Assembly: GCA_964187785.1 (NCBI GenBank)
Contig: OZ076414.1
Span: 27,838,001-27,902,000, forward strand
Source: Amphiscolops sp. MND2022
Lineage: Eukaryota
Length of the DNA: 64,000 nucleotides
Direction of reading: 5' to 3'
Shown here: positions 5,491-63,101 of the stretch, in pieces
Layout: the number at the start of each line of letters is the position of its first letter
How positions within the stretch are numbered: the first letter of the stretch is position 1
Notes under the pieces: model-generated
What the model saw: the letters and a program-made list of their open reading frames with translations, nothing else
Told to the model about the DNA's origin: nothing
Database searches by the model: none
Made by a program: the position numbers and the translations under genes

Positions 5491-5655
5491 CAACTAACTA
5501 TTGACAATTCTTTTAGAACATGAAACCCCTAAAACTGAAATGATTGACAACAACTTTTGTCCTCTTACATAACAAGCTGGTGTTTTCGAGTCTGGTTCGG
5601 ACTTTGTTCAATAATAAAGCTCTTAAAAATCTTTCACTTGAAGTTATAAAACTCA
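5451..5655 (+). repeat. Polypurine tract and 3' LTR of the first BEL element (3' end uncertain)
   Basis: GGGGCGGAGGA (5451-5461) immediately followed by TGTTG (5462); AATAAA at 5613-5618; candidate CA ends at ~5636 or 5655. The partner LTR is outside the window. Confidence 0.6.
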
Positions 5656-30145: not shown

Positions 30146-31357
30146 CACGGATGAGCATAAATATGCGCTTGAAGCAAAACTTTGAAAAGGCTAAAACAAG
30201 AAGCTGAAAAACTAAACTTTTCACGCCACCATGAAAGTTTTGAATTCAATTCAAAAACTTTATCACGTTTTAAAGTTGCAGTCACAAAAAATGGTCAGTT
30301 TTTCGTGTTAAAAAAGAAGCGAAATGATCAAGCAAACAAGTTTTGTGCAACTTTTGACCACGTTTCTGCAAAATACGGAACAGTTAAGAACACTTGGCAA
30401 CGCTATTTATCTACCGGATCAGTTCGAGATATTCACAGACCGGGACGACCAAAGGTTTTCTCAGTGCGAAGCGAAAGACGAATTGTTAGAAAACATAAAG
30501 AAAACCCATTTTTGACAGCGATTGAGTCCGGCGACCAATGGGCCGTTAGCAGGTTTACTGTTGGCAAAATACTCAAAAAGTATGGTCTGCAATGCAGAAA
30601 ACCCCACAAAGTGCCAGTAATTTTTCAACAGAACAAAAATATGCGACGCATTTTTGCAGACAAAACTAGAAGCTGGAATCAACAATGGAAACAAGTATTA
30701 TGGTCAGATGAGAGTACGTTTTGCTTGCACCAGCATGATGGTCGGATCAAAATCTATCGTCAACCAAAACCCGATATGCAAAAAAGAAATCAACTGCAGT
30801 TTGATCGCTGGAAAATCGGAGGAATATTGGTTTGGGTCGGAATTTCTTACAACTGTCATACCAATTTAGTTTTTATAGAAGGTCCAATAACCGCTCAAAG
30901 ATACATTGACGAAGTCCTAGTACGCGAAGTAGTCCCGTTCTTGCAATCCTACCCAGAAGTTTGGATCTTCCAACAGGATAATGCGTCTCCGCATTCTGCT
31001 GAGATCACCAACCAATTCTTGGCACAAAACGATATACGCACCCTTCCCTGGACACCAACTTCGCCTGATTTGTCGCCCATTGAGCATGTATGGGATCAAC
31101 TTAAACAGTTCTTGCGAAAAACGGAACCCTTGCCCAGAAGTACAACCGAGCTTAAAGACGTGCTAAACTATCTTTGGCTAATCTACCCACAAAGTTCAAT
31201 AAGAAAGCTTATTGATTCCATGCCAAGACGAATTATGCTATGTATCCGAAAAAGAGGTGGACCGACCAGCTATTAGACTCAGTCTTCGACATTGTTGTGT
31301 TTTATTACACTTAAATCTGTTATTTGATATTCAAGCGCATATTTTTGCTCAGCAGTA
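30146..31357 (+). mobile_element. Tc1 (DD34E) DNA transposon, copy 1
   Basis: 28-bp imperfect TIRs CACGGATGAGCATAAATATGCGCTTGAA (30146-30173) and TTCAAGCGCATATTTTTGCTCAGCAGTA (31330-31357, followed by TA) flank the transposase. Confidence 0.9.
30182..31276 (+). pseudogene. Tc1 transposase (DD34E), open frame but lacking an in-frame N-terminal ATG
   Basis: GRPK linker, WSDES, QQDNASPH, SPDLSPIEHVW (34 residues between D and E), RGGPTSY end. First in-frame ATG is at 30641, downstream of the HTH; upstream ATGs at 30291 and 30324 are out of frame. Confidence 0.85.
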
Positions 31358-34182: not shown

Positions 34183-35393
34183 CACGGGTGAGCATAAATA
34201 TGCGCTTGAAGCAAAATTTTGAAAAGGCTAAAACAAAAAGCTGAAAAACTAAACTTTTCACGCCACCATGAAAGTTTTGAATTCAATTCAAAAACTTTAT
34301 CACGTTTTAAAGTTGCAGTCACAAAAAATGGTCAGTTTTTCGTGTTAAAAAAGAAGCGAAATGATCAAGCAAACAAGTTTTGTGCAACTTTTGACTACGT
34401 TTCTGCAAAATACGGAACAGTTAGGAACACTTGGCAACGCTATTTATCTACCGGATCAGTTCGAGATATTCACAGACCGGGACGACCAAAGGTTTTCTCA
34501 GTGCGAAGCGAAAGACGAATTGTTAGAAAACATAAAGAAAACCCATTTTTGACAGCGATTGAGTCCGGCGACCAATGGGCCGTTAGCAGGTTTACTGTTG
34601 GCAGAATACTCAAAAAGTATGGTCTGCAATGCAGAAAACCCCACAAAGTGCCAGTAATTTTTCAACAGAACAAAAATATGCGACGCATTTTTGCAGACAA
34701 AACTAGAAGCTGGAATCAACAATGGAAACAAGTATTATGGTCAGATGAGAGTACGTTTTGCTTGCACCAGCATGATGGTCGGATCAAAATCTATCGTCAA
34801 CCAAAACCGGATATGCAAAAAAGAAATCAACTGCAGTTTGATCGCTGGAAAATCGGAGGAATATTGGTTTGGGTCGGAATTTCTTACAACTGTCATACCA
34901 ATTTAGTTTTTATAGAAGGTCCAATAACCGCTCAACGATACATTGACGAAGTCCTAGTACGCGAAGTAGTCCCGTTCTTGCAATCCTACCCAGAAGTTTG
35001 GATCTTCCAACAGGATAATGCGTCTCCGCATTCTGCTGAGATCACCAACCAATTCTTGGCACAAGACTATATACGCACCCTTCCCTGGACACCAACTTCG
35101 CCTGATTTGTCGCCCATTGAGCATGTATGGGATCAACTTAAACAGTTCTTGCGAAAAACGGAACCCTTGCCCAGAAGTACAACCGAGCTTAAAGACGTGC
35201 TAAACTATCTTTGGCTAATCTACCCACAAAGTTCAATAAGAAAGCTTATTGAACCATGCCAAGACGAATTATGCTATGTATCCGAAAAAGAGGTGGACCG
35301 ACCAGCTATTAGACTCAGTCTTCGACATTGTTGTGTTTTATTACACTTAAATCTGTTAATTGATATTCAAGCGCATATTATTGCTCAGCAGTA
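34183..35393 (+). mobile_element. Tc1 (DD34E) DNA transposon, copy 2, with C-terminal frameshift
   Basis: Same TIRs offset by 4037 bp; ATTGATTCCATG became ATTGAACCATG (net -1), extending the ORF to 35538. Confidence 0.9.
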
Positions 35394-36172
35394 TAGTTTT
35401 GTTAGTTTAAAGTTAGTTTTAAAATACTTAATGGATCCATGTCGTCTGCCCTGGGCGAATGCTGGGATACCGAAACAGCAAGCCAAATTGCGACCGGGAG
35501 CGGGTCGCGACACTTTTCAGGGTTCGTTTGAAGAATAACAAACGAAGCGAAATTTTTGTGCGCAAAATGTGCTCTCAGAATCATCCCAATTCAAAAACTC
35601 TCAAAAATCTAAAAGGTGCTCAAGATAAAACAAAGCAGCGGGTCAAGAATGTTGCGATGAAAAAATGCAGCCATAAAGCTGAAGAAGTGAGCAGTCGTTT
35701 TAGAAAAACTCATGTTCACTAAACCATAGTACATGCATTTTTCGCCTTTGAAGTTGCATATCAGTCAGTTTTCGGGTTCAATAGAAAGTTTAGGTTTAAG
35801 TTTTGACTTGTCATTGACGTTTTAATCACGTTTTTCGAACAACATATCAATTAGCAGATCTTCGTTTTTCTTTGCGAAACCAAAGAAATTTTTGAAAATG
35901 CACCCCCTGAAACTAATAGCATGAAGTTTTCCGATGAAAGTTACATCTACTTTCTCTTTCAAAAAGCAATTGGTAAGCTGAATTTTTTTCTTCTTCAAAC
36001 TAATTAGTCAGAGTAAGAAGCTGTAACGAGTCGATCCGCTGTTTTGAACAACCTATCCCCTGTTTTTAACGTTGTTTGAGCGTGGATTTCTAAATGGAGT
36101 CTATCCATTTCAATGGATGTATCGTTAACGTTTCTAACAGGATTTACGAGAGGTCCTTTTTCTCCACCTTTG

Positions 36173-37380: not shown

Positions 37381-38777
37381 TAAGTACATCGAGTATCTCC
37401 CTTTGGAATCGAATTGTAAGTTTTCGGATCTCTGAAGTTATAATCTCTTCTTTCAAAGATGCTCTGTGTCCTCGCTATTTGCGACACTTGGTTATCTATA
37501 ATTCAGCGGGGTAATGGCGATTTCGTACTTGAAAAAAATTTTAACTTCTACTGGAATATCTGCAGTGGGACAAATAGTTTTCTTTTCCTGGACAGCTTTC
37601 CATTTTTGACAACTGGTTTTGGGGAAATGAATATCAGATAGTTCGAATTGTCCAATGGTAGTACGTGACAATTCACATATTTTTTCAATTGGAAGAAACC
37701 GACTAATATCATTATGATGAATGTTGGTAATCAAATGTAAACAATTACATTTGACATTAGTTTTTCTTCTGTGGATTCTACCAATTCCTAGTTGAATTAA
37801 GAATTTTAATCGAATGGTATTGAGATCCTATAACCATCTCCCGAATATACTAGGATGATTTACCTATAGAAAGTCTTAACATGGTGTTTATGTATTACAA
37901 TCAAGATAGGATATTCTACCTGGTGTTAAGTATTCCGTGTACAGACAAAAGCGCCCCAGACAAAGGCGCCCCAGATAAACGCGCCCCTATGCAAAACGTT
38001 TTTACTAATTTTTGAGTTGATTTCACTACCTCTAATTAGGCTTAATTGAAGGTGTTCAAAGACAAAGTTAACTCAATGGTAATGCCAGATTTCACATTCT
38101 CACACTTTAAAAAACTCAATTGGTTATCATGCGACACTTGGTTATCTATAATTCAGCGGGGTAATGGCGATTTCGTACTTGAAAAAAATTTTAACTTCTA
38201 CGGGAATATCTGCAGTGGGACAAATAGTTTTCTTTTCCTGGACAGCTTTCCATTTTTGACAACTGGTTTTGGGGAAATGAATATCAGATAGTTCGAATTG
38301 TCCAATGGTAGTACGTGACAATTCACATATTTTTTCAATTGGAAGAAACCGACTAATATCATTATGATGAACGTTGGTAATCAAATGTAAACAATTACAT
38401 TTGACATTAGTTTTTCTTCTGTGGATTCTACCAATTCCTAGTTGAATTAAGAATTTTAATTGAATGGTATTGAGATCCTATTACCCTCTCCCGAATATAC
38501 TAGGATGATTTACCAATAGAAAGTTTTAACATGGTGTTTATGTATTACAATCAAGATAGGATATTCTACCTGGTGTTAAGTATTCCGTGTACAGACAAAA
38601 GCGCCCCAGACAAAGGCGCCCCAGACAAACGCGCCCCTATGCAAAACGTTTTAACTAATTTTTGAGTTGATTTCACTACCTCTAATTAGGCTTAATTGAA
38701 GGTGTTCAAAGACAAAGTTAACTCAATGGTAATGCCAGATTTCACATTCTCACACTTTACAAAACTCAATTGGTTAT

Positions 38778-40508
38778 TGTCGCAGGCTGCCGCCTGTGAT
38801 GGCACTTTAATAACGACTTCAGCAGCCAGTCAAGAGATAATTCCCGGAACCCTACCAACATTTTGAACAGGTTTACGCTAAACTCTAAAAACTCACTCCC
38901 AATATTTATGTTTGCCTAGATCAATTACATTTTTATTATGATACAATGCGTATTAGTCTGTTAATAATACATTAGACAAGTGAAGTTGCAAGTTGTAAAA
39001 TAACAATGCTCAATGTAAATTATAGTTCAACGCAAGCTACTAAACAGCTTAAAGGAAATGAGTTCGAGTGTATGTAGCTTTCAGTCCGAAAGCGTCACTT
39101 GAGCCTAATGTACCAACCAATCATATTCGAGTATTTCATGGTGCTATGCTGCTTTAATCAATTGGCCGGATATGGCCGTTTGTCTTAATGGTGCATTAAT
39201 TAGTTGGAATACTAGGCAGATGGCCGGATTAGGCTTTTCTTTGGTCATTGTTGCAACTTATTGTATTAATAATGTTGTAGTGCTCAATAGTCATGTAAGC
39301 TCTCTCTTTACACCTGAAGTTAATAATTAGTGCCTTTACGTTCTTTGAAACAAATAGTACCCCCATACCAACCCAATTATTAGTACCAATCTTTTGGACT
39401 AACTAGGTTATTCGCTCTGAATGAATTAAAGTCCAATGGCCGATTTAGGACATGTTGTGTTTTGTTTCGTGATTGACGCTAAAGCTACTCGTTTGTTGCA
39501 ACGGCCGACGTTCGTAGGCACGTGGCAGCATTCCGTGATGAACATTCCTTAGATAGTTGTGTTATGTTATTTGTTTGATGTTTGTTGCCGATGATACTCA
39601 ACTATGATGACGTATAGTAATATCGTTGATGTTTTCAAATGGAAAGATATAATCTCGTGACCCTAACAAGTATGAATTCCTAGAGTTCTTTGATAAGGTG
39701 CTAACCGCCTCATTTTAACCGTTGTTGTGCCCTAACCTTGTGACTTAAGGAATTTGTAAATTGCGGGTATTATATCAAAATGTGTAAATTCCATTCTCTC
39801 GGAAGTATATATACCTACCCGTTCCGAGAGGTGGACACAATTGCCTTTATGATACTCAAACTTAGTTTGTTTCGCTTTTATAGATTGCAAACCTAGACCA
39901 CCAATAAACTATTCATTCTCGAGTTCTTAATGCCTACTACGATAAGACAAAAGAAGGCTAGAAAGTCAAGAGGAATAGAAATGCTATCTGACATAGAAAA
40001 CCTCGACATTATGTTAGGGGAAAACCATTTTGGTAGAAATGGGAGAGATGAAAGTGTTAGCAGTAATTTTGGCAGAAGGCCTGGTAGTACATCTGCAGAC
40101 GAATTAGAGAATAATGGTGAGAATAGAAACTCAGCCACAAGAGACCTGATAACAATGCCGATTATGGCCAGATTTCAACTGGAGGTAATTCTAGTGCTGA
40201 GATTAACAAGTTGTCTAGTGAGTTGAACTCGAGATTGTCGAGGGAGTTAGATGATATGATGTGTAGTGTCAATTCCCAGATTCAAAGGGCGATTAGTGAT
40301 GCAATCAGCAATCAGATATTGCCCCAGATCCAGTCCGCCTTAAGTGCCGGATCGGGACACTCGACTCAGAGTAGATGGAACGTTTCGTCCGAGAGACCGG
40401 AAGTATATTCCGAAGGACTGCAAAACAGTAACCCTAAGGACAGTTCAACTAGTAAGCCTAATTGTAATCACCAAAATGATGGCGTAGTAGAGTCTAATGC
40501 TTACGACA
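38778..40508 (+). mobile_element. Solo LTR, 1731 bp
   Basis: TGTCG...CGACA inverted termini, perfect 5-bp TSD GTTAT (38773-77, 40509-13), AATAAA at 39903; no internal gag-pol. Confidence 0.9.
39930..40508 (+). pseudogene. LTR-encoded ORF (~193 codons, one frameshift) running out of the LTR 3' end
   Basis: ORFs 39930-40226 and 40211-40537 join with one frameshift downstream of 40126: MPTTIRQKKARKSR...SSELNSRLSRELDDMMCSVNSQIQRAISDAIS...ESNAYD. Confidence 0.7.
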
Positions 40509-41580
40509 GTTATCATGCGACACTTGGTTATCTATAATTCAGCGGGGTAATGGCGATTTCGTACTTGAAAAAAATTTTAACTTCTACGGGAATATCTGCA
40601 GTGGGACAAATAGTTTTCTTTTCCTGGACAGCTTTCCATTTTTGACAACTGGTTTTGGGGAAATGAATATCAGATAGTTCGGATTGTCCAATGGTAGTAC
40701 GTGACAATTCACATATTTTTTCAATTGGAAGAAACCGACTAATATCATTATGATGAATGTTGGTAATCAAATGTAAACAATTACATTTGACATTAGTTTT
40801 TCTTCTGTGGATTCTACCAATTCCTAGTTGAATTAGGAATTTTAATCGAATGGTATTGAGATCCTATAACCATCTCCCGAATATACTAGGATGATTTACC
40901 TATAGAAAGTCTTAACATGGTGTTTATGTATTACAATCAAGATAGGATATTCTACCTGGTGTTAAGTATTCCGTGTACAGACAAAAGCGCCCCAGACAAA
41001 GGCGCCCCAGACAAACGCGCCCCTATGCAAAACGTTTTTACTAATTTTTGAGTTGATTTCACTACCTCTAATTAGGCTTAATTGAAGGTGTTCAAAGACA
41101 AAGTTAACTCAATGGTAATGCCAAATTTCACATTCTCACACTTTACAAAACTCAATTGAAAACGACTTAAACTGCTAATTTTGTTGCACTATTTTATTAA
41201 TGAACTGCATTATTTTATTAATGAATCAATTCGTCAATACATTAAATACTAATCATTATTTAATTGGAGTGAGGAACTTGAAATTATTGATGGAAAAGAA
41301 TTAGCAAATCCTCTGTAGTTGTAACGATAAGCGCTGGCGCTTGAACCGCAACTTAGAGTGGAGGAACTAGAACAGCGAATATAATCTGGGACCTAGATCT
41401 CCGCGGCCCTAGCTCGTTTTCCCTCCGAAGGAGCCAGTCCCAAGGTGGGGGAACCGTCTTGTAGGACGCTCTCTGGCCTGGTCCCAGTCTGTAACTGCTG
41501 AGAATAACGGGCATCCGTCTCGGCCCTTTGCCTGGGACCACCGTTTAGACAGCCTTTAAAAACAATGCCAAGTATAAACA

Positions 41581-44237: not shown

Positions 44238-44605
44238 TACTCAACGTTCGAATAAAATCTGAACATTGAAGCTGAAATTGGTGATGAAAAAAATCAATAC
44301 TTTAGAACGGCTTTCCTCAAATTTAAGACGTTGCCAAAATTAGACGTAATTTGGCTCATTGCGGAAATTATGAGGCATGACTTACTATGAGAGAAGTTCC
44401 AGGATCTTTCCAATCCAAAAAACAGACTAGAGACTTCCAACAACAGAACTGGGAACTTTCTTCGTCACCGTAGGTTAATCTACAGGATATTTACTTATAA
44501 GATCGCAAGTTCCAAAGTGAACCAATCCAGTTTTTTTTTTAAAACTGAAGCCTATTCAAGCCCCTACTCTATGCTCGTCCTTTTGAGAACTAACAGAACA
44601 CTTGC

Positions 44606-45170
44606 TGTGATAATCTTCTTCTGCACAGACTTCGTTTATAATTACAGTGTCATCTAAGTCGAGATTTTGGAATGGAAACTGTTTGAATTGGAGTTCTAAA
44701 CTCATTTGTCTCTGATGGCTTGAAAGGATTACCCTGTACGCTGTTTTCTTGATTTTCGGAATTAGATGCATTTACTTCACCGTCATCATTGCGTGTGTGT
44801 TTGGGTGTTTCTATTCTCGACGTAGTTTTTCCGTTTTTTTTCTGCTAGGAATTGATTTGGTTCATCTACTGTTTTTCACTTACCTCATCATTTTTTCTGA
44901 CTCATCATTCATCTCTTTTCTTAATTCTGCCATTTCTTAATGTGTGTTATCTGTTACTCTTTGTGTTAATACTTACATCTCATTCTCATTTTGTGTAGGA
45001 TCAGTTGAAACTGCTTCCCTGTCCCCAACTGAACTAACTTTGTCAAAATTACTAAGAGTTTCATCCATATTCTCATTACCTTGCGATGCTTCTGCTTCTG
45101 AAGCGCTCAGGTCTCTCTCAAGCGAGGGTGATTGTCCTCGTCTGGATCTCCTATTTCTTTTGTTACCCAT
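44606..45170 (-). pseudogene. LTR-encoded ORF (~188 codons, decayed) running out of the LTR 3' end
   Basis: MGNKRNRRSRR...EMAELRKEMNDESEKMM...NPFKPSETNEFRTP...NLDLDDTVIINEVCAEEDYH, reconstructed across several stops and about 2 frameshifts. Confidence 0.65.
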
Positions 45171-46136
45171 CTCAGCTTCTCAGTTAGGTTAAAATGATGT
45201 TTGTTGGAGAGAAGAATTTCAACTAAGTTAGAAGATGAAATGAAGTAGAGTTGGAAACAATGTTGAGAAAGTCATACATAATATCAGATAACTAAGATAA
45301 AATAGAGATTGTGATGAGATAAACTGCGAAAAGATACTCCCAAAGAGATAAAAAATAGTAAGTCTGATCGGTTTGAAGTTTTTTAGGGCATGACTTTTCA
45401 TGGGGTTTTCTAACTATCCTATTTATCGGGGTCTATTTTTGGTAGCGTGACTGTCGTTTTTTAGAAATCATTCCTACATCATCATTCCGTGATTTCCAAA
45501 AAATAGCGCCCCGTTATTTTACTTGTTACAAAAATAGGTTCTAACATGACATGATATTTATAAAAAGAATCATGCATGACGTAATCAACTGCCGTTTGAT
45601 TGTCTACAACATATACCGCAACGTTATCAAAACTGTTAATGAAAATGGATTTAATGTACAGTATAACGCATTACTCTAATATATCGTACAATGCTGATTG
45701 CATTGAAATGAATACATATGAGTCGTACTGCTAAAGAGTTACGTTGAAAGTATTGAAGCAATTAGATTATCCTGCATTATACTGCAAGCTTAATGCGGCA
45801 ATCAGAATAAATATTTAGGTTAGGTATGCATTTTGCTCGTACAAAGAGTGCGTATATTTATTCATTTCACTAGTAAATGAACAGAATAGCATCGTGTGCC
45901 AAGTGAATGTTTAATTTGCACTGTGTGTGTTTGCACACTGTCTAGCATCAATGGTGGGATTTACTCAGTATAAGTGTCAAACAAATTCTAACATTGCTGG
46001 TGTTTAAATATCACAAATGAATTTACATGACGTAAATTTGAAGAGACAATAAGTTTTGGTTAAGTTTCTGCCGACGGGTTGAAGTATTTGGCCCAATGTT
46101 GCATTCCGGACCCGACGCAAGCTCTTGGCTGCGACA
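44606..46136 (-). mobile_element. Solo LTR, 1531 bp (different family from 38778-40508)
   Basis: Minus strand TGTCGCAG...TATCACA, perfect 5-bp TSD CTTGC (44601-05, 46137-41). Confidence 0.9.
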
Positions 46137-46146
46137 CTTGCAACAC

Positions 46147-46429
46147 CCCTGGTAGACAATAAATGAGTTCCTTGCAAGAATCTTTCAAGACTCTTTCAAG
46201 ATTTTGCAAGATAATACATTTTTCATTCGATTTTCTGACCAAATCTTGCAAAATCCGTGCTCAAAAGGCATTCCTAGCAAAATCTATAACTTCATTTTGC
46301 AAAGATCTATCTTTTTTTGCAAAATATTGCAAGAATAACATTTACTTGCAGGATTTTTTTCAAGAAATGCAATATTTGCAATGATCTTGCAAGATCCTTG
46401 CGAAAGGCTTGCATTTTTTTCAACCAGGG
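46147..46429. mobile_element. ~283-bp MITE with TTGCAA palindrome array
   Basis: Termini CCCTGGT...ACCAGGG with further imperfect pairing; about eight TTGCAA/CTTGCAAG units; TSD not clear. Confidence 0.7.
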
Positions 46430-46974
46430 GCGGAATTAACAACGAAAACGACAAAGTTGTTATAACTGGATTGCCGAATACAGGAAAACAAGATATCGTT
46501 GACGAAATGATCGAAGAAAGAACTGTTGAAAACATCAGAGAATTTGGTGAACAAGTCCAACTGTCAAAATTCGGCAATGGGTACCGAAATATGGATATTC
46601 TTGAACAAGGGCCTAGATGCCGGAGTATACATTTAATGATTCAGAGTTTCAGACATGACGAAGTTGATGGTATAATTCTTGTAGTTGACAGCTCTCAACC
46701 CTGGTGCCCTCAAGAAACTGATGAATATACTCGTATTTTTTCGAACATTCATCTGAGGTTCAAACCAATCCTAATTTTTGCCAACAAACAAGATTTACCC
46801 GCCGCTAGGACACTGCCTGAGATTATTGAGAGTTCGGGGATGTTGTTGCAGAACCAGAGACTTTGGCATATTCAGCCATGTTCAGCCAAAACGGGAGAAG
46901 GCATCCAAGAAGGTTTCTTGGAACTGTCCAGAATGATCGGTTACCACAAAAAAATTAAAAACCCAAGTTTATAG
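46381..46974 (+). CDS. Divergent Arf/Arl-family small GTPase-like protein (uninterrupted ORF; true start uncertain)
   Basis: KVVITGLPNTGKQ (G1-like), DGIILVVDSS, PILIFANKQDL (G4), WHIQPCSAKTGEGIQEGF (G5, Arf-typical); AATAAA at 47175. The first ~16 codons lie inside a MITE. Confidence 0.85.
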   Translation: MILQDPCERLAFFSTRGGINNENDKVVITGLPNTGKQDIVDEMIEERTVENIREFGEQVQLSKFGNGYRNMDILEQGPRCRSIHLMIQSFRHDEVDGIILVVDSSQPWCPQETDEYTRIFSNIHLRFKPILIFANKQDLPAARTLPEIIESSGMLLQNQRLWHIQPCSAKTGEGIQEGFLELSRMIGYHKKIKNPSL

Positions 46975-48881: not shown

Positions 48882-50820
48882 CTAACATTGACGAGATTCA
48901 TGATATTAATTTGGATGAAACATTTGCCAGTAATGAATTGTGTTGTTCGATTCAGAAAGAGTCACATATACACCTTTCATATATAAACTTCTTTTGTTTG
49001 AACTTCTAGATAAATCTCATGGTGCCATTTTTTCGTGTTTTTTCAGCAAATCTGCCCCATTTCCATGAAGTTTTTTCAAATACTATGTGTATTTTTCATC
49101 TAACCTCTTTCACCTGAATTTCACTGGAAAAACTTTACTTTTCTTACACTGCAAAAAGGAAAGCTCGCAAAATAGAACAAAAACTTACTTCCGCTAGTCC
49201 AAAGGCGGCAAAAAATGTATTATGTTCTTCTGATAACTTTGATCTAGGAGTTCTTCACTGGGTTGTGAAATGGGCTCGTTTGCCGAAAAGGAACAAAAAA
49301 CCATTTTTTTAAAAAATCCACCTCATTACCGACGCGATAACGATGTATTTACATTTTTTTCTCAATATTTTCTTCTCGTTTGATGTGAACACTGCTCCTC
49401 AAACATAACGCTAAATTGCTGTTTATTACGCGACTGAAGTTATTCTGGAATAGAATGGCGATTACCTTGACAGCCACTTAGATTTGCATTGAAAATTGAA
49501 ACTATTTTTTAGTGAAACCTGCAAAAACTCTAAGCTTCAAATTGCCGCACAAACATTTATGAATATTTCAGGAAGCTTTATAAAGGCCGAGTACAACAAG
49601 GAGTATTTTCACATAACTTCCGTGAGAGTTTCAGAAAACCATAGCGAACGTTGCTGGCAACAATATTGTTGTTGGCGCCTCGAAAATAACTTGAAATCAG
49701 CTATTTGAAAAGTACCCTAAAATAGCTCCTAAATGGTGACTGTAAAAAATTGAGTTTTGGAATCACACTCTAGAATGATCGGGGACCGACATATTTTTGG
49801 CCAACTAAACCATCTAGGGCAAAAAACCGGAAATCGAAGGCAATAATTTGAAAAATATTTTTTTCTGGGGCAAAACTAGACTTTTCTTCTAATATAGTTC
49901 AAATTTGGTATTTTATCGTCTTGTTTGTGTATCTTTCAAGTAGGCCCTATTTCGTTATATCTAGTCCAGGCGGAAGCCGATAGAGCTTTTGTAACCTGAT
50001 ACAAGCATTTGTGGGCAAAGAAACAAACATAATCATGAACCACAAAATCTTGTAAATCTTGGTTTTGATATACCAATATCTTTATAAACTTTATCGACTC
50101 GAAAGTGGGCTGTTTGTTAACATTGTGTATCTTTATAGAGCTTTTATGGTGCCCTTATATTTGATTGTAAACTTGACAGTTTATGTAATTTCGTGCATTG
50201 TTAACAACCCAAGTTAACTCCTTCTTGAAGAACAGACCCAAAAAGTGAGATTGAAAACGATTGACATTCCTTGTTCAAGCAACCAAGAAAGTAATTGTTC
50301 GGAACTTTATCGTTTGATTATTCAAGTTAACTTGGGATATTATAGAGCTATTTCGAACTTGTTCTTGTTTTTATACTGGATTCGAGATTCCCACAATATA
50401 TTATTATTGCATTTCTGGCAATTTTTCGCTTGAAAAGATTTTGAGACAGAAGACCTTCAACCTTTTTGGCAAAGTTATTCGACTACGATTTGTTACTCCC
50501 CATTTTCATCGACGAGTCAACGGTTTAGTGAGTTTTATGAGAAAACTCACTTCTCAAGTCAGTAATTTCTATGTTTTCTAAACAAGTCGAAAAGTGGTCA
50601 CAGATGCAGTATATGCTTACCCGACCTCGGAAATATTTTTAAACAATGGGTATTGTCCGGAACTTAAAAAGAAGGGACATTTTGAAGTTTTTGAAAGTAG
50701 TGCATTTTGCAAGTGCCTTTCTCGGAGAAACAATTCTTAGACGTGCCCGCAAATTGTCAACCAGGCCGTCGTAAAGATTGATAAGTGATTTTGTTATCAT
50801 ACCTTGCAGACGTAAAATTT

Positions 50821-50838
50821 TGGTGCCGCGACCCGGGA
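50821..50838 (+). promoter_or_regulatory. Primer-binding site, tRNA-His-like (duplicate at 54074-54091)
   Basis: TGGTGCCGCGACCCGGGA lies 3 nt after the LTR and resembles the complement of the tRNA-His 3' end (TGGTGCCGTGACTCGG) with mismatches. Confidence 0.7.
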
Positions 50839-50887
50839 AGGCTCTGTGCGGGATTCGGTCATTATTTGATTTCCAAAAGAAAATAAA

Positions 50888-52761
50888 ATGGCAGAGCCGA
50901 TTGTACGCGATTTGTGGGACCCCACATATATGACTTCAACAAAAAACGGATTTGAAAGAAAGGTCTGTTTTACTGACTGCTTGAAAAGTTCTTCAACAAT
51001 GAAGGATTGGACAGAACACGAAAAACGTGTCTCAGATCCGATTTTAATTCTCAGAAACCTAGACGCGGATTTCCAGGATCTCGATGCTCAGGGTCCAACT
51101 GTTTGGGTTGACGTTGGTAAATTTTTCTTAACTTACTCAATTTCAAAGGACAAGTTGCGCAAAGAGTTCGAAATGTATCTCCCAATGCTGAAAAATAAGT
51201 TTCAAGGCAGCCGTAAGGAGATTTTGTACAACTTGGAGTACGAACTTCAAAAATATTTTGAGAATTGGAGCAAAAAGTCCTCATATCTTGTGAGCGTGAG
51301 TAGGTTTCCATCGCGCCTGAAGAATGAAAATGACCTAATGAAGTAAATGAAACTCTGCGATCAGTTTTACGACGCCAAACGAATAATTGAAGCAGAAAAC
51401 ATGACAATCAATAAACTAATCGAGCAAAGAGCGAGGTCGAGTCATGTCAAACTGGCTATCCAGAAACTTCAAGATAACAAAGCGATTTAAGATAAAAGTC
51501 TCGATAGTAGACGCAATTGTCTCAAGCCTGATGCTTTGACAACTCTATCACACGCCGAAATAATTGTCACAGAACTGAACTCTGTCGTTCAACAGGCAAT
51601 GACTGACGCTCTGAACTATATTGATAGCTGCAATACAGCGGCAAATGATCCATTGGAAAACATAGAAACACCTGAAGTGTCTGGGTTTGAAAGTTCAGAG
51701 TTATCAAAAGACGATGAGAACCGTTCTCATCCTTTGGAAAAACCCAAGGCGAATGAAACACTTGAAAAAGGATTAAAATTGCTTAAAGAGGCAAATCAAT
51801 CAACGCTATTCCTCAGAACTAACGCCCGGTTTGATAACCCATCTTGTCAACCTCAATTGGCTACTTTTGGTTCCCAAAGAAGATTATCTTTGGCAGACTA
51901 CTCCCCTTCTAGAACATTAGCTATGAGTGAGCCAGCGAAGAAGGCCGGTTCAAAGATAGGCTCCAGTGCTTCGAAAATGAGCGAGCGAAGACGCTCGGAG
52001 ATACAAGCTGAACTGATGGATCAAACATCACAAATGGAAATAGAAAAAAGAGAACGTGAGTTGGAACTAAAGAAGACCCGTAGAGAAATGGAAATGGAGA
52101 AGAAGCTCCAAGAGTTGCAGGCAGAATCGGAAATCGCTGAATTAAAGCGCAAGAAAGCTTTTGAAAGGCAGCAAATGCGGTTGCAAAAAGAAGGCGCTGA
52201 AGGATCAATTCGTGCTTCTTCAATATGTCCTAGCCTGATGTCTCTTACTCTGGAGGAGGACAAAAACAGCGAAATCAAAAGTCGGTTGGACCAAGGCATT
52301 GAAGACTTGGATAAATGCTTCTCACATTCGAGGGAATCTAGCAGAGAAGTAGGAAATAAAGGTGAGTAAAGTTAACCGTCTCAGAAGTTCCAAACATTTG
52401 ATCACAAAAACCTACTATCGCGAACTCAAGGCCGAGGTTCGAGTAAGTCTCCCCAAAGGAAAAACACTGGAATTACCTTTCCGAAAACAAACACTCTGCT
52501 CCAGCAAGGCAATGAGAACCCAAAGCCTAAGTATGAATTCGCGGAACCTTCATTCAAAATAGAAAGTGAATTTCCTTCCTTCACACCAGCAGTTTCGGTA
52601 CAGCAACCTGTACAATTTGTTCAAACAAGCTTACCTAAATTGAAATTATCTGAATTTCATGGAGATCCATTGGAATGGCCAGAATGAACCTGCTTGTTCA
52701 CAGCCACCATCCATAATGCGCCAATTGATGACAAGCAAAAATGAGTCATTTGAAAACACTC
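50888..52761 (+). pseudogene. BEL gag 5' half, copy 1 (single frame broken by in-frame stops)
   Basis: ORFs 50888-51346 and 51536-52369 and the LPKLKL motif (52631) are all in one frame; stops at 51344, 51488, 52367, 52373 and 52685. Confidence 0.85.
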
Positions 52762-54140
52762 ATTCTGGAATAGAATGGCGATTACCTTGACAGCCACTTA
52801 GATTTGCATTGAAAATTGAAACTATTTTTTAGTGAAACCTGCAAAAACTCTAAGCTTCAAATTGCCGCACAAACATTTATGAATATTTCAGGAAGCTTTA
52901 TAAAGGCCGAGTACAACAAGGAGTATTTTCACATAACTTCCGTGAGAGTTTCAGAAAACCATAGCGAACGTTGCTGGCAACAATATTGTTGTTGGCGCCT
53001 CGAAAATAACTTGAAATCAGCTATTTGAAAAGTACCCTAAAATAGCTCCTAAATGGTGACTGTAAAAAATTGAGTTTTGGAATCACACTCTAGAATGATC
53101 GGGGACCGACATATTTTTGGCCAACTAAACCATCTAGGGCAAAAAACCGGAAATCGAAGGCAATAATTTGAAAAATATTTTTTTCTGGGGCAAAACTAGA
53201 CTTTTCTTCTAATATAGTTCAAATTTGGTATTTTATCGTCTTGTTTGTGTATTTAACCTTTCAAGTAGGCCCTTTTTCGTTATATCTAGTCCAGGCGGAA
53301 GCCGATAGAGCTTTTGTAACCTGATACAAGCATTTGTGGGCAAAGAAACAAACATAATCATGAGCCACAAAATCTTGTAAATCTTGGTTTTGATATACCA
53401 ATATCTTTATAAACTTTCTCGACTCGAAAGTGGGCAGTTTGTTAACATTGTGTATCTTTATAGAGCTTTTATGGTGCCCTTATATTTGATTGTAAACTTG
53501 ACAGTTTATGTAATTTCGTGCATTGTTAACAACCCAAGTTAACTCCTTCTTGAAGAACAGACCCAAAAAGTGAGATTGAAAACGATTGACATTCCTTGTT
53601 CAAGCAACCAAGAAAGTAATTGTTCGGAACTTTATCGTTTGATTATCGTTGAATTATTATTGCATTTCTGGCAATTTTTCGCTTGAAAAGATTTTGAGAC
53701 AGAAGACCTTCAACCTTTTTGGCAAAGTTATTCGACTACGATTTGTTACTCCCCATTTTCATCGACGAGTCAACGGTTTAGTGAGTTTTATGAGAAAACT
53801 CACTTCTCAAGTCAGTAATTTCTATGTTTTCTAAACAAGTCGAAAAGTGGTCACAGATGCAGTATATGCTTACCTGACCTCGGAAATATTTTTAAACAAT
53901 GGGTATTGTCCAGAACTTAAAAAGAAGGGACATTTTGAAGTTTTTGAAAGTAGTGCATTTTGCAAGTGCCTTTCTCGGAGAAACATTTCTTAGACGTGCC
54001 CGCAAGTTGTCAACCAGGCCGTCGTAAAGATTGATAAGTGATTTTGTTATCATACCTTGCAGACGTAAAATTTTGGTGCCGCGACCCGGGAAGGCTCTGT
54101 GCGGGATTCGGTCATTATTTGATTTCCAAAAGAAAATAAA

Positions 54141-57100
54141 ATGGCAGAGCCGATTGTACGCGATTTGTGGGACCCCACATATATGACTTCAACAAAAAAC
54201 GGATTTGAAAGAAAGGTCTGTTTTACTGACTGCTTGAAAAGTTCTTCAACAATGAAGGATTGGACAGAACACGAAAAACGTCTCTCAGATCCGATTTTAA
54301 TTCTCAGAAACCTAGACGCGGATTTCCAGGATCTCGATGCTCAGGATCCAACTGTTTGGGTTGACGTTGGTAAATTTTTCTTAACTTACTCAATTTCAAA
54401 GGACAAGTTGCGCAAAGAGTTCGAAATATATCTCCCAATGCTGAAAGATGAGTTTCAAGGCAGCCGTAAGGAGATTTTGTACAACTTGGAGTACGAACTT
54501 CAAAAATATTTTGAGAATTGGAGCAAAAAGTCCTCATATCTTGTGAGCGTGAGTAGGTTTCCATCGCGCCTGAAGAATGAAAATGACCTAATGAAGTAAA
54601 TGAAACTCTGCGATCAGTTTTACGACGCCAAAAGAATAATTGAAGCAGAAAACATGACAATCAATAAACTAATCGAGCAAAGAGCGAGGTCGAGTCATGT
54701 CAAACTGGCTATCCAGAAACTTCAAGATAACAAAGCGATTTAAGATAAAAGTCTCGATAGTAGACGCAATTGTCTCAAGCCTGATGCTTTGACAACTCTA
54801 TCACACGCCGAAATAATTGTCACAGAACTGAACTCTGTCGTTCAACAGGCAATGACTGACGCTCTGAACTATATTGATAGCTGCAATACAGCGGCAAATG
54901 ATCCATTGGAAAACATAGAAACACCTGAAGTGTCTGGGTTTGAAAGTTCAGAGTTATCAAAAGACGATGAGAACCGTTCTCATCCTTTGGAAAAACCCAA
55001 GGCGAATGAAACACTTGAAAAAGGATTAAAATTGCTTAAAGAGGCAAATCAATCAACGCTATTCCTCAGAACTAACGCCCGGTTTGATAACCCATCTTGT
55101 CAACCTCAATTGGCAACTTTTGGTTCCCAAAGAAGATTATCTTTGGCAGACTACTCCCCTTCTAGAACATTAGCTATGAGTGAGCCAGCGAAGAAGGCCG
55201 GTTCAAAGATAGGCTCCAGTGCTTCGAAAATGAGCGAGCGAAGACGCTCGGAGATACAAGCTGAACTGATGGATCAAAAATCACAAATGGAAATAGAAAA
55301 AAGAGAACGTGAGTTGGAACTAAAGAAGACCCGTAGAGAAATGGAAATGGAGAAGAAGCTCCAAGAGTTGCAGGCAGAATCGGAAATCGCTGAATTAAAG
55401 CGCAAGAAAGCTTTTGAAAGGCAGCAAATGCGGTTGCAAAAAGAAGGCGCTGAAGGATCAATTCGTGCTTCTTCAATATGTCCTAGCCTGATGTCTCTTA
55501 CTCTGGAGGAGGACAAAAACAGCGAAATCAAAAGTCGGTTGGACCAAGGCATTGAAGACTTGGATAAATGCTTCTCACATTCGAGGGAATCTAGCAGAGA
55601 AGTAGGAAATAAAGGTGAGTAAAGTTAACCGTCTCAGAAGTTCCAAACATTTGATCACAAAAACCTACTATCGCGAACTCAAGGCCGAGGTTCGAGTAAG
55701 TCTCCCCAAAGGAAAAACACTGGAATTACCTTTCCGAAAACAAACACTCTGCTCCAGCAAGGCAATGAGAACCCAAAGCCTAAGTATGAATTCGCGGAAC
55801 CTTCATTCAAAATAGAAAGTGAATTTCCTTCCTTCACACCAGCAGTTTCGGTACAGCAACCTGTACAATTTGTTCAAACAAGCTTACCTAAATTGAAATT
55901 ATCTGAATTTCATGGAGATCCATTGGAATGGCCAGAATGAACCAGCTTGTTCACAGCCAGCATCCATAATGCGCCACTTGATGACAAGCAAAAATGAGTC
56001 ATTTGAAAACACTCGTTAAAGGCAAGGCCAAGGCAGCTATTGTGGGTCTCGGATACTCAGGAGTCATGTACAGTGCAGCATGGAATGCTTTGGTTACTAA
56101 TTCCGGACGTCCACAAACCGTTGTGAATGCCCAGATGAAGCTAATCCATTTCAGTCCGTTCATCAAGTCGCATGATTCAGCGGCTATTATAAAGTACGCA
56201 CTGTTGATTACTACATGCGTTAATGTGTTGAAACGATTCGGATTCACAGGAGATTTGTATTCCGAGTCCGTCTTGAATTCAGCGTTGAGGAAGTTACCAC
56301 CTGAATTGAAAACCAAGTCGTTTTTCCTTGCGAAGAGCAAAGGCTACTACCATGCTGATCTTTGCAAATTTAGCGAATGGCTGAACGAAGTTGTTTGTGT
56401 CTACCATGAAATGACAGTGCAATTCAAGTCTCAACCAGAGAAAAAAGGCTACGCTAGTACGGAAAAAATGAAAACCTCAACATTTGCTGCTATGCTAATG
56501 AGCAGAACAAATCAACATCTGCATCAACAAAGCAATATCCATTGAAGGATGGCGACCATATTATCTGGATGTGTACGAAGTTTAAACAACAAGGAGTTAA
56601 TGAGAGATACGAAACACGTAAGTTATATAAACTTTGTGTCTGTTGTTTAAACTCACATTTGATGAAGGACTGCAAGTCGGACAGAGTTTGTGGAGTAAAT
56701 GGATGCACCAAGAAACATATCAAGCTTTTGTATTCGGATTCTCCTAAAACAGAAAAAGACAAGAAAACGGAGGAGCCCTTGGCTCATAACAGGGTCGGCG
56801 GTTCTTCAATGCTCTCAACGGGTTGCAGTGATTTCTTACAATTGATACCAATGTCAATCGGAAATGAGAAACGAAGCGATGAAACGATAGTTCTTTGTGA
56901 TACTGGATCCACAGTATCATTTATGGACAAAACTTTGGTCAACCTTTTGAAGTTGAAAGGTAAAGAAGCTGTGATGTCAATAGCTGGAGTTCATGGGCTG
57001 TCCGACTTGAAGACTGAAATTGTTACCGCTAGAATTGGTCCAAGTAAAACAGATACTGCGGGAGAAGAACTGGCCTTCTGCAGTCACCCAAACTTGAATG

Positions 57101-60100
57101 TTGGTGACAGGGTCTACAATTTTACAAAATGGAAAGAAATCCATTCCTGTTTGAACAATTTGCCGAATAAAAAAGTCTCGATGGCTGATGTCAAGGTCAT
57201 GCTTTGTCAAGATGCGTATCACCTGATCAGACCTCGTGAATATAAGTCAGGTGATAGGAATGAGCCTTGGGCGGTCAAAACTTCTTTGTGATGGACAGTG
57301 AGTGGAGCATTACCCAAAACAGAAACAAACTGTTTGGCAGCTTCGTGTAACCTCTCCGTGTCATGGGATCCTTTAGCGGACCAAATGAAAAAATGGTGGG
57401 ACATGGAGACATACGCGTCTGTGTGTGACGTCTCAAGACGTTCTAAGGAGGAAAAGAGAGCCCAAGCAATCTTGTAAAAAACTACCAAACATAACAGCGA
57501 ACGGTATGAAGTAGGACTCCTCTGAACCGATGACAACCCTAATCTGCCGAACAACTATTATTCTCCTTATCAAAAGTTTCTGTCAATAGAGAGAAGATTA
57601 AGCAATGATCCAGAGTTGAAAGAAGCTTACAAAGCTACCTTTGAGAAAGGCTCAAAAAATCATTTTCTACGAAAACTGGAACAAGACGAAGTTGTGAGTA
57701 CAGAAAATGAAATGCAATGGTTTTTACCTCGCCATCCGGTCAAGCACCCACACAAACCAGGCAAGGTCAGAAGAGTTTGTAATGCAGCTTCAAAGTTTAA
57801 AGGCGTTTCGTTGAATGACAAACTTCTCAGCGGACTTGATTTGTTGCGAAATTTAGTTGGAACTGTTGTTAGGTTTAGGGAACACCAAATAGCTATTACC
57901 GCCGATATTGAGTCCATGTTTTTGCAAGTAGCAGTTCCGAAAGGGGAAAATAAACTACTTCGTTTCTTATGGCGTGATACTCCTGAGGACAGCATCGGAA
58001 TCTTCGAGTACAACAGACACGTGTTTGGGGCAAAAAATTCTCCAACTTGTGCGAACTACGGATTTCAACAAGGAGGAAGAGACCACAAGGTTGATTTTCC
58101 TTCAGCAGCATCGACCATTGATAGAAACTTCTACATGGACGATTTAGTGAAAAGTGTTGATAGTCCTCAGGCGGCTATTACTCGTTACCAAGAGTTGGTA
58201 GAGATTCTCAAACGTAGAGGATTCGCATTGAAGAAGTGGACTAGCAACTTTCCGGAAGTTTTAAAAAAAATCCCAGTAGAAGATCGATTAGAAGCAAACG
58301 AATTAACGCAGAATCATCTGCCACCCTAGGTCTGGAGGGGATAATCGATAGAGATTGTCTGCAAGTATGTAGAGGACCTAACAAAGAATGTCCGCAAGAC
58401 ATTACTCAACGAGTAGCGTTATCTTTTGTTTCCTCAGTTTTTGAACCCATGGGACTTTTTGCTATGAGGATGCGAATGCTTTTGAAAAGTATCTGGATTC
58501 GCTTTGGCCAAACATGGGATGAAAAAATTGCGGATGATGATAAACAGGTTTTACTAGATTGGATGACAGAAATGCAAACGATAAAAAACACCCCACTTCC
58601 TCGAAATTATTTTTCCGATAATCTTAAAAACGTTCAACTTCACATCTTCAGTGATGCGTCTCTAGAAGCTATGTGCATCGTCGCTTATTTTCGAGCAGAA
58701 GTCAATGATGGAGTTGAAGTCTCTTTTGTTTTGGGCAAATGTAGAATAGCTCCCATCAAACAAATGTCTATATCTCATCTAGAGCTTCAAGCAGCGGTGT
58801 ATTTAGTAAAATTGGGAACTTTGATTGTTCAAAAAAACGACTTACGTATTGACAGTGTTGCTCATTGGACTGACTCAGTTACTGTGCTTCAATGGTTACA
58901 TTCAGCTGACAAAAAAAAACAAATTGTTTTTGTAGCTAACCGAGCAACTGAGATCTTGGAAAACTCCACAATTGACGAAAGGGAGCACGTTAAAAGTGAA
59001 AATAATCCATCCGATATTGGAAAGCGGGGAATTACTATAAAGAAACTGACAGAAAGTGATTGGCTATCTGGACAATTTGGCTCAAAGACCAGCCTAACAA
59101 TTGGCCTTTGTCTCTGCAACCAATTAACCTGGTGCCTGATGACCATGCTGCAGTTGCAGTAATTGCGAACACAAGCATGACTCAGGAGCCAACAGTTGAT
59201 TGGAGCAGATTTAGCAATTTTTCCAAATGTGTGCGTGTTATTGCATTTTCCTTACGGGTGAAGTTCAAAAGCCAATCCATCCATGCGAATTAAATTGAGC
59301 GGAAGAAATGGTTCTGAAAAAAATCCAACGAGAAACCTTTCTCGAAGTGTATGATGGGAAGCAAATGTTTTGTAAGACAAGCAAAGGTGGAGACATGGCA
59401 AAATTTTCTCCATTTTTCGATGAATTCAGTATAATTAGAATAAGAGGTCGCATCAAACATGCTAATTTGAAATTTCAACAGCGACATCCAATTCTTTTAT
59501 CCACAAAACACAATTTGGTTAGTGTAAGGTTACGTGATTTACATTTGGAAAACAACCATGAGGGAGTAGAGTATGTTAGTAGCGTAATACAACAGAAATT
59601 TTGGATTCTGTGATTACGAAATGCTTTGAGGAACATAAAAAGTAGTTGTGTATACTGCTGCAAATTACGTGCGCAGATAAAATCTCCTCTCATGGCCGAT
59701 TTACCTTCAGAGAGACTTGATGATCAGTCATCTCTTTTTACCCACGTTGGAATGGATTATTTCAGTCCATTCGAGGTTAAAATTTTACGAAGATCGATGA
59801 AACGATGGTGCTGTTTGTTTACATGTTTGACTACCAGAGCAGTACATATCGAAGTGGTTCGAAGCCTTGACACAGATTCCTGCTTGGTAACTCTCAACAG
59901 ATTTATTGTCAGACGTGGCAAGCCAACAACCATCATAAGTGATAATGGTACTAACTGTGTTGGATCCGCGAGAGAGTTAAAAGAGTACATCAACTCGTGG
60001 ACTCAGGCTCAAATTACATCAGAGTTGGCTCAAAAACATATCACATGGAAATATAACCCTCCTGGGGCACCTCATTTTGGGGGTGTTTGGGAGCGGTTGG

Positions 60101-60682
60101 TCAGAAGTTGCAAGAAAGCAATGATGGCAATTCTGGGAAATCGATCTCTGACAGATGAATCTTTGACTACAACTATGTGCTTGGTTGAACAAACATTGAA
60201 TGCGCGTCTTATTACCCCAGCAATTGATGATCCTGCTGATGTGGAGGACCTTACGCCTAATCATTCATTTCATTTTGGGACGTGCTAATGTTTGTATACC
60301 CTTTATCCCCAATGCTGAAGTTTATTCCAATCATCGCAAGATGTTTAGATCTAGTCAAGCTTATGCGGATATGATTTGGAAACGATGGGTTGCAAAATAC
60401 GTACCACAAAACAATGTCAGAACCCAATGGAGTAAACAAGAAGCCAATGTTGAAGTAGGCGACTTAGTATGGTTGGTGGATAACAATGTGAAAAGGTCTC
60501 ATTATAAGATGGCAGGAATCCAAGAAATTTATCCAGCAAAAGACGGTGTAGTGAGATCACTGCTTATCAAAACTCATGACGGTACCTTCAAACGACCTGT
60601 AGTAAAGTTGGCGCTAGTATTCAATGATCGTTTTCAGTCTGGAAACGGGGCCGGCATTGTTGGCGCCTCGAAAAGAACTTGA
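54141..60682 (+). pseudogene. BEL gag-pol pseudogene (copy 2 of gag 5' half continuing through pol)
   Basis: Consecutive fragments 54141-54599, 54789-55622, 55994-56545, 56542-57291, 57616-58329, 58449-59162, 59308-59613, 59626-60288, 60200-60682. Confidence 0.92.
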
Positions 60683-63101
60683 AACCAGGTATTTGAAAAA
60701 TACCCTGAAATAGCTCCTAAATGGTGACTGTAAAAAATTGAGTTTTGGAATCACACTCTAGAATGATCGGGGACCGACATATTTTTGGCCAACTAAACCA
60801 TCTAGGGCAAAAAACCGGAAATCGAAGGCAATAATTTGAAAAATATTTTTTTCTGGGGCAAAACTAGACTTTTCTTCTAATATAGTTCAAATTTGGTATT
60901 TTATCGTCTTGTTTGTGTATTTAACTTTTCAAGTAGGCCCTATTTCGTTATATCGAGTCCAGGCGGAAGCCGATAGAGCTTTTGTAACCTGATAGAAGCA
61001 TTTGTGGGCAAAAAAACAAACAGAATCATGAACCGCAAAATCTTGTAAATGTATGCTTCAGATGTTGATATACCAATATCTTTATAAACTTTATCGACTC
61101 GAAAGTGGGCAGTTTGTTAACATTGTGTATCTTTAGAGAGCTTTTATGGTGCCCTTATATTCGATTGTAAACTTGACAGTTTATGTAATTTCGTGCATTG
61201 TTAACAACCCAAGTTAACTCCTTCTTGAAGAACAGACCCAAAAAGTGAGATTGAAAACGATTGACATTCCTTGTTCAAGCAACCAAGAAAGTAATTGTTC
61301 GGAACTTTATCGTTTGAGTATTCAAGTTAACTTGGGCTATTATAGAGCTATTTCGAACTTGTTCTTGTTTTTATACTGGATTCGAGATTCCCACAATATA
61401 TTATTATTGCATTTCTGGCAATTTTTCGCTTGAAAAGGTTTTGAGACAGAAGACCTTCAACCTTTTGGCAAAGTTATTCGACTACGATTTGTTACTCCCC
61501 AATTTCATCGACGAGTCAACGGTTTAGTGAGTTTTATGAGAAAACTCACTTCTCAAGTCAGTAATTTCTATGTTTTCTAAACAAGTCGAAAAGTGGTCAC
61601 AGAAGCAGTAATTGCTTCACCGACCTCGGAAACTTTTTTAAACAATAGGTATTGTGCAGAACTTGAAAAGAACAGACATTTTGAAGTTATTGAAAGTAGT
61701 GCATTTTGCAAGTGCCTTTCTCGGAGAAACAATGCTTAGACGTGCCCGCAAGTTGTCAACCAGGCCGTCGTAAAGCTTGATAAGTGATTTTGTTATCATA
61801 CCTTGCAGACGTAAAAATGTGAATGCAAGATTTTCAAGCATTTTCAACAAGGATATAATCTTCCTATTACATTAAGCTTGCCAATATGAATATTCTGCAT
61901 ATGAAAAGAATGGGCTGATTCAATTGTCAAAAATCCATTTCCAATATTTTTCCATTGGTCTATTCCAAGGTGACCCCATTGGTCTACCACCCCAGTTACA
62001 TTCTAATGGCTAATCATCCATTGTAATTTTCAATACATTTGATTCATGACTCATCATTCATGATGATAGCTCTGGTGAAAATCCGCGTTTCATCCATGAA
62101 CACCCATACAGAAAGCTACATGTTTTTTAACCATGGAAGAGTATTGAAGTCTGTAATAAAATAAGCATTTCATCGAACTCTAATCGGGAGAGTAGGAATG
62201 GAACGATTTTGTTTACAAGAATTAAATCTGGGAAACTTTCAAAAAGTGTTTTGAAGTCAACTAGTTTAATCAGTTTCAGAAAGTTGTAATTATATAAAAC
62301 AAAGTTTGGTAAGAATTGACATCTCGCTTTATTTTTAGACGTTAAACTACTAATTTCAGTTCACCAATGCTCTTATTTTAGTGTTGTTTGAGAGCATCTC
62401 TTTTGCCAAAATGAATGAAAGGTAAGGCCTCTTTATGATCTTTTATTTCGTGATCATCCATGAATCATGGATATCTTTCATGATCATGCAATGACTCTTG
62501 GCAAGGCGAACCATGGTTGAATCATGGATGGAAAGCCTTTTCCTATAAACCTGGGTCCTCCTTTTCTAAAGATTGAATCTGAAGCTATATGAGTTAGAAT
62601 CGAAGGATTTTAACGGATATCATCAATTGTGGTATGTAAGATCCCCCATTTCAAGGTAAGACCTCCCCGTCAGAGTTAACAGCTATTCATGGTTTTTTTT
62701 TTAAAAAATTAATTGGCTTGTAAAACTGTAGTAGTTAAATCAAAGAAAACTGGCAATTAGTTGTAATGAAAATGAAATTTGTTGACCTAAATTCGCCGTC
62801 AGCAATTCTACTCACCAACACTTTTATTCCATATGATTTTCAGTCGTGTGTTTACCCAATACACGTTGCTAGAAAAATCTCAGTTTGAATCAACTCTACT
62901 CGAAATTTTTGATATTATACGGTAAAAGTATACTATCGAGAAATTGATGTCGCAATTTCACCTTTACTTTTACTTTTTACAGACAATATTGTTTTTTGAA
63001 TATAACATAAACCTCAGTTTTCCTTTGTTTCCTCGAACAAAAATTCGTTCAGAACGTTTCCGTGAACAAATTTTCAGTGAAATTCGGTTTGATATTGGTT
63101 G

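Follow-up and report, generated by a model that had tools for sequence, protein, structure and literature searches.

A decayed solo LTR of a Ty3/Gypsy clade in which gag very probably opens inside the LTR and an accessory frame ends in the other LTR end

In LTR retrotransposons, LTR ends and both priming sites are usually treated as non-coding. HIV nef and the integrase tail of plant CRM elements overlap the polypurine tract (PPT) and the 3′ LTR and enter U3, and the GAG gene of Ty1 starts inside the LTR, with an overlap of about a dozen codons. A section of PMC4974528 places the primer-binding site (PBS) of Saccharomyces cerevisiae Ty1 inside the GAG ORF, and the PBS segments of Ty3 outside gag, next to the 5′ UTR and within the 3′ UTR. 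In the part of PMC11011659 that deals with metaviral Gag, the domains upstream of the capsid (CA) are dissimilar between lineages, variable in length and without a canonical MA, and ARC has a predicted coiled coil upstream of CA. For plants, a portion of PMC7264820 records further ORFs in the interval from pol to the 3′ LTR.

Here we describe a solo LTR at 44606–46136 of the window, the whole 64,000-nucleotide stretch of DNA that was analysed. Sequence comparisons make it very probably a decayed member of a large Ty3/Gypsy clade whose LTRs carry the start of gag at one end and the close of an accessory frame, ORF Z, at the other.

The solo LTR and a comparison element in the window

The solo LTR lies on the minus strand and belongs to a decayed Ty3/Gypsy family, designated family B. 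As originally predicted, it spans 1531 bp and is flanked on both sides by the 5-bp target-site duplication (TSD) CTTGC (44601–44605 and 46137–46141, plus strand). It has TG...CA ends, with TGTCGCAG as its first bases and TATCACA as its last, and neither a PBS nor internal sequence is attached. The LTR is repetitive, with 45 matches of 72–100% identity among the 40 candidates scored of 631. Other copies are 72–82% identical to it over long matches, and the family is old. Of 30 fetched copies, 14 have both ends at the borders of the match; within these 14, the 5-bp TSD is perfect in 6 and the PBS is exact in 1. Copy L030 carries an exact PBS straight after the LTR, and copy L020 a degenerate one.

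The decayed start of gag occupies 44607–45170 (minus strand) and comprises the first 188 codons, for which sister copies have open orthologous frames. Translation from the ATG at 45170, which lies exactly 565 nt away from the end of the LTR, gives MGNKRNRRSRR..EMAELRKEMN..EDYH plus one base. The position and reading of this frame agree with the original prediction, but the frame is not open here, being closed by 6 in-frame stops and frameshifts. Compensating indels (−4/+4 and −1/+1) are present relative to the sister copy L176. The encoded N-terminal part of Gag has a basic N terminus, a predicted long helix and disordered linkers. The helix, predicted to be amphipathic and 47 residues long, falls at approximately 44859–44999 (minus strand), a position transferred by alignment from residues 58–104 of L176.

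Three further features are placed around this frame. The right att end, ACA, is located at 44606–44608 (minus strand), and its last A would be base 1 of an A|TG junction codon if a PBS followed. An ATG-free stretch at 45171–45274 (minus strand) precedes the gag ATG, the previous ATG being 105 nt upstream, and would correspond to a 5′ leader. The left end (46093–46136, minus strand) holds the att end TG and the last 13 codons of ORF Z (SQPRACVGSGMQH). The frame from the ATG to the LTR end is open in none of the 30 family B copies, so the coding sequence of the family is read via its sister family; in copy L027, the frame is open over the retained part. The solo LTR itself is a neutral recombination relic and makes no Gag.

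A second solo LTR in the window, of family A, serves as a comparison element. It is located at 38778–40508 (plus strand), is 1731 bp long with the TSD GTTAT, and ends in TAC GAC A. The N terminus of its gag is frameshifted (39930–40507, plus strand) and comprises 195 codons where copies are open; a TATA box stands 124 nt upstream of the gag ATG. At its left end, an ORF Z tail (38778–38866, plus strand) reads SQAAACDG...LPTF and a stop. Family A copies are 94–99% identical, and the family is young. The PBS follows straight after ACA in 11 of 30 loci, 5 of which read as one frame of 195 + 375 = 570 codons; with L030 of family B, these loci bear out the expectation that the PBS adjoins the LTR.

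Other repeats and frames occur in the window. The family A solo LTR is housed in a 650-bp tandem repeat unit with several near-identical copies (37480–38777 and 40509–41180). An intronless frame of 211 codons at 46339–46974 (plus strand) resembles Arf-family GTPases (Pfam Arf, E 3e-17); it starts about 200 bp from the left end of the family B solo LTR, points away from it, and has a divergent P-loop (GLPNTGK). Two BEL/Pao-type elements (DUF1759, Peptidase_A17, DUF5641) occupy approximately 500–5500 and 49400–61700 (plus strand), and the second contains three LTR-like copies and a 3.25-kb internal duplication. Two Tc1-type transposase frames (30173–31276 and 34210–35538, plus strand) lie in a 4-kb tandem duplication.

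The gag frame across the right LTR end

The general junction ACATGGTGWCAGGAG occurs 7465 times in the Ty3/Gypsy clade, compared with a single occurrence of the reversed control. In a sample of 70 of the 7465 junctions, all on one contig, the A|TG phase is open for at least 100 codons upstream in 52, and either other phase in none. This tabulation, which the original prediction had proposed, shows that the exit phase is not random. Where the core is open for 300 or more codons, the A|TG phase is open upstream at 35 of 37 junctions. A search for spacers between LTR and PBS gave 245 matches, and 91 of the 100 shown still had zero spacer; such spacers are rare. PBS matches without the preceding A number 290, against 59 in the control.

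A junction pattern of the family B type is found at 98 sites. The 30 that were read represent a younger sister family of B, with 68–71% nucleotide identity to the solo LTR. The A|TG phase is open for 100 or more codons upstream in 23 of these 30, and the other two phases in 0 and 0. In 8 of the 30 5′ LTRs, one frame runs from the LTR ATG through the A|TG junction and the tRNA-Leu PBS to the gag stop, and the resulting Gag includes the capsid and a zinc knuckle. The layout is thus Ty1-like, with gag opening in the LTR and the PBS inside gag. Across 23 aligned Gags, the LTR-coded part measures 103–216 codons. Tandem elements with a common LTR (LTR-internal-LTR-internal-LTR) were also observed in families A and B (L032/L041/L033, L176/L177 and G000:C7 41.62–41.66 Mb).

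The PBS is a 12–13-nt complement of the host tRNA-Leu(CAG) plus CCA. Genes for tRNA-Leu(CAG) form a tandem array with a spacing of about 220 bp (L185, L186), which is the likely primer source.

Several details of the junction read differently from the original prediction. The A+TG Met is present but not specially selected, since an att A followed by a PBS TGG forces it. A conserved Tyr-X at the LTR end is not borne out, as Tyr is penultimate at just 25 of 70 junctions; the att site ACA fixes the last LTR codon as nAC in every case. Nor is the common exit phase an independent sign of selection, because it is inherited with a continuous gag in one clade and one alternative phase hits TGA in the PBS.

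Evidence for selection comes from substitution patterns. Pairwise dN/dS in the LTR part has a median of 0.16 and a maximum of 0.40, and the core value is 0.08; these figures cover 29 of 65 pairs, the other 36 having been dropped for a dS outside 0.1–1.5, and the pairs have sequences in common and are not independent. Differences between 30 decayed family B loci and L176 number 1408, 982 and 2190 at codon positions 1, 2 and 3. These patterns indicate that the LTR-internal gag frame is under purifying selection, and the suggestion that the att site and PBS double as coding sequence holds in that the frame runs on through both. As far as sequence can establish it, the opening of gag in the LTR is real, clade-wide and selected. 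In some pairs (L080/L097, L088/L092, L091/L117, L114/L128), the LTR part shows far more synonymous divergence than the Gag core (e.g. 0.62 vs 0.06), an unevenness that suggests LTR swaps between subfamilies.

The region ahead of the LTR ATG also bears on where translation starts. The ATG-free stretch has a median length of 158 nt, compared with 21 nt at control points. A TATA box is found 120–180 nt upstream of the ATG in 16 of 31 sequences, and no other 60-nt bin holds more than 5. None of the 7 B-like sequences, the solo LTR at 44606–46136 among them, shows the peak, so support for a start site is weakest in this group. An initiator-like TTAGTT motif shows no positional conservation, and only 9 of 31 sequences have a poly(A)-like hexamer no farther than 60 nt from the ATG. 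The label "U5" used in the original prediction is a name given by position. In a comparison made with no shuffle control, the TATA box sits within an inverted repeat in several A-like LTRs (approximately 39790–39835 in the window; L097, L101, L138), and a GTGTCA motif stands ahead of the TATA box in many families.

Gag might instead start at the junction Met, with the LTR frame as a separate or occasional upstream extension, giving a short and a long Gag. The sequence MVTG that would open such a protein is invariant in 23 of 23 aligned Gags, yet it is dictated by the att A and the tRNA complement. The junction ATG is always followed by G at +4 and has a purine at −3 in the GAC/AAC families, but scanning would need to skip several in-frame ATGs between the LTR ATG and this one. 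The LTR-encoded part is mostly disordered in the structural model, which would suit such an extension; against this, the upstream frame is stop-free, has its own ATG behind an ATG-free leader and shows purifying selection. We consider a start at the junction improbable. It is less probable still, to the point of being hardly credible, that the LTR frame serves mainly to make its own short protein from solo and 3′ LTRs, as a copy-number or dominant-negative factor, with read-through incidental. Every LTR does carry the promoter-like region and the frame, and 23 of 30 family A LTRs are stop-free over their last 193 codons, many of them 3′ or solo copies. However, the LTR has no internal stop, and therefore 3′ and solo copies would end in random flanking DNA after 1–67 codons, and old solo copies decay freely, as seen in the neutral decay of family B. 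A Gag that starts at the LTR ATG and continues into the capsid is thus preferred.

The reverse transcriptase (RT) tree, a check suggested in the original prediction, places all families in one group of its 30 rows. RT identity to family A is 58–95%, with 40–74% for decayed B fragments and 26% for the outgroup. Family B RT fragments nest inside the sister family with support of 99/95, in a tree that has a midpoint root and a single outgroup and to which one family B stretch contributed no RT match. Protein searches returned only unnamed relatives, close or fragmentary. The pol order is PR-RT-RH-IN by Pfam positions in family A pol, and not the PR-IN-RT-RH of Ty1/copia. Slippery-type heptamers, A-rich or TTTAAAC, end most gags, and gag and pol overlap.

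The sister Gag of L176 was modelled with AlphaFold from a 23-sequence alignment, at a mean pLDDT of 59. The model shows disorder in residues 1–57, a helix at 58–104 (pLDDT 80–93 for residues 61–100), disorder to about residue 222, and then a helical capsid region and knuckles. Foldseek ranks the PNMA2 and dArc capsids as top matches of the capsid, with modest scores (E 3.6e-4 to 5e-3), and Pfam matches to zf-CCHC and Ty3_capsid are weak, below the cut-off. Gag thus combines a retroviral-type capsid fold with a CCHC knuckle. Most LTR-encoded N termini are basic. Heptad scores of the helix, obtained with no control, are mixed (0.12–0.90), so "coiled coil" remains a guess, and a two-copy complex prediction scored 0.02, which is evidence neither way.

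The LTR-encoded part is taken as a variable N-terminal Gag domain, which may serve in oligomerisation, in binding RNA or membranes, or in nuclear import. Sequence searches gave no match for it, and an ESM Atlas search gave a best score of 0.81 and no lead. The family A and family B LTR peptides are laid out alike, yet the profile comparison that the original prediction called for detected no homology between them, with an hhalign probability of 0.4% for profiles of 7 and 8 sequences.

ORF Z at the left LTR end

ORF Z reads in the sense direction, reaches about 390 codons at most and spans the border between internal sequence and 3′ LTR, downstream of a block of antisense ORFs. The antisense block, between pol and ORF Z, carries a zinc-finger-like C-x2-C...H motif (L071 1031–5139, L189, L193, L195). 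The left end was analysed in 29 elements, of which 24 have a junction, 2 have no 3′ LTR in the fetched stretch and 3 have unclear starts. In 22 of the 24, the longest upstream frame is in the x|TG TCN phase, read as V/L/M-S; of the two elements that deviate, one does not represent a genuine pair of LTRs. This frame reaches 100 or more codons in 17 of 24 elements. The base following TGTC varies in the manner of a Ser wobble. Both LTRs in the window share the TGTCGCAG start because ORF Z crosses into the 3′ LTR in one phase; the coding nature of this start is absent from the original prediction.

Inside the LTR, the ORF Z tail extends for 6–31 codons. Its length is fixed within groups, at 14 codons in B-like and 29–30 in A-like elements, and an S-x-x-x-x-C pattern is kept. 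Family B 3′ LTRs have the same C-F-K-N-A-G-type sequence just before them, and the solo LTR begins with SQPRACVGSGMQH; the codon right after its 13 is the ORF Z stop in relatives. As a candidate env-like frame between pol and the 3′ LTR, ORF Z has no Pfam match.

The overlap at this end could be passive, with ORF Z simply running to the first chance stop in U3 and its tail having no role. The tails are short and differ among subgroups, and the short-Gag subgroup has upstream frames of just 29–81 codons, as a passive overlap would allow. The constant phase, the fixed tail length within groups and the retained S-x-x-x-x-C speak against it, as do the differences in the LTR-internal tail, of which 60 fall at the third codon position, compared with 22 and 24 at the first and second (7 independent pairs). 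A passive overlap is unlikely, with some real weight left to it, and would be compatible with gag read-through. The preferred reading is that ORF Z is coding across the LTR border.

The plus-strand priming position falls within ORF Z. In some subgroups, it is G-rich and read as Gly codons; in family A and in the B sister family, no purine run is found beside the 3′ LTR. The purine fraction of the last 15 nt before the 3′ LTR ranges from 0.33 to 0.93.

Proposed layout and comparison with known systems

In active elements, gag would open 103–216 codons inside the LTR, and its frame would cross the att site and the tRNA-Leu PBS before reaching the capsid; the accessory frame would stop 6–31 codons inside the other LTR end. 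Both LTR ends are likely translated, and therefore the sequences that direct copying and insertion probably also encode protein. Transcription probably starts about 100 nt ahead of the LTR ATG, which would then be the first AUG of the genomic RNA. In the resulting Gag, a basic tip, a long helix and disordered linkers would precede the capsid, and the LTR-coded part is likely a fast-evolving N-terminal domain in the matrix position. A −1 frameshift at the heptamers may express pol, and first-strand strong-stop DNA would be about 650–700 nt long. In families A and B, the demands of coding for ORF Z have likely worn down the polypurine tract, and the plus-strand primer there would be non-purine.

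A stronger formulation is entertained here without being favoured. On it, these elements would be a Ty3/Gypsy lineage not described before, with all four replication signals (the two att ends, the PBS and the site of plus-strand priming) translated, each in a constant phase. The LTR would house a whole Gag domain, as long as 216 residues, that evolves together with it, and a non-purine primer would have taken the place of the polypurine tract under pressure to code. If true, this formulation would entail unusually long strong-stop DNA and altered RNase H recognition.

The clade offers thousands of copies that show LTR ends and priming sites constrained as protein code. Across this natural series, one can ask how reverse transcription copes with a PBS that is translated, a first jump of 600 or more nt and a polypurine tract that has eroded. 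Each solo or 3′ LTR also leaves behind a promoter-like region and an open-ended frame of 100–200 codons that points into host DNA, a possible source of chimeric genes. Annotation that seeks gag only past the PBS would lose a third of the protein.

Like Ty1 (Ty1/copia, Pseudoviridae) as generally described, the elements start gag from the LTR and carry the PBS in gag. They differ from Ty1 in having the Ty3/Gypsy pol order, a tRNA-Leu primer instead of initiator Met, an LTR-coded part of 103–216 codons instead of about a dozen, and a second ORF overlapping the other LTR end. They resemble Ty3/Gypsy elements (Metaviridae-type) in the order PR-RT-RH-IN, the PNMA2/dArc-like capsid fold, the 5-bp TSD and the gag-pol overlap, and their RT is similar to that of Ty3 (E 7e-25). 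Unlike in Ty3, the PBS forms part of the coding sequence, and no run of purines borders the 3′ LTR in families A and B. As with nef and CRM, an ORF between pol and the 3′ LTR reaches U3; ORF Z, however, enters by just 6–31 codons, co-occurs with gag-in-LTR and matches no Pfam family.

Like the variable N-terminal Gag domains of metaviruses and the predicted coiled coil of ARC, the domain described here precedes CA; it lies inside the LTR, where the relevant part of PMC11011659 does not place such a domain. No account of this layout for Gypsy elements came up in a literature search that used narrow phrases and did not extend to subscription journals or repeat databases, and it may still be published. 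The layout is a far longer, two-sided form of the Ty1-type layout, and its principle is known from Ty1.
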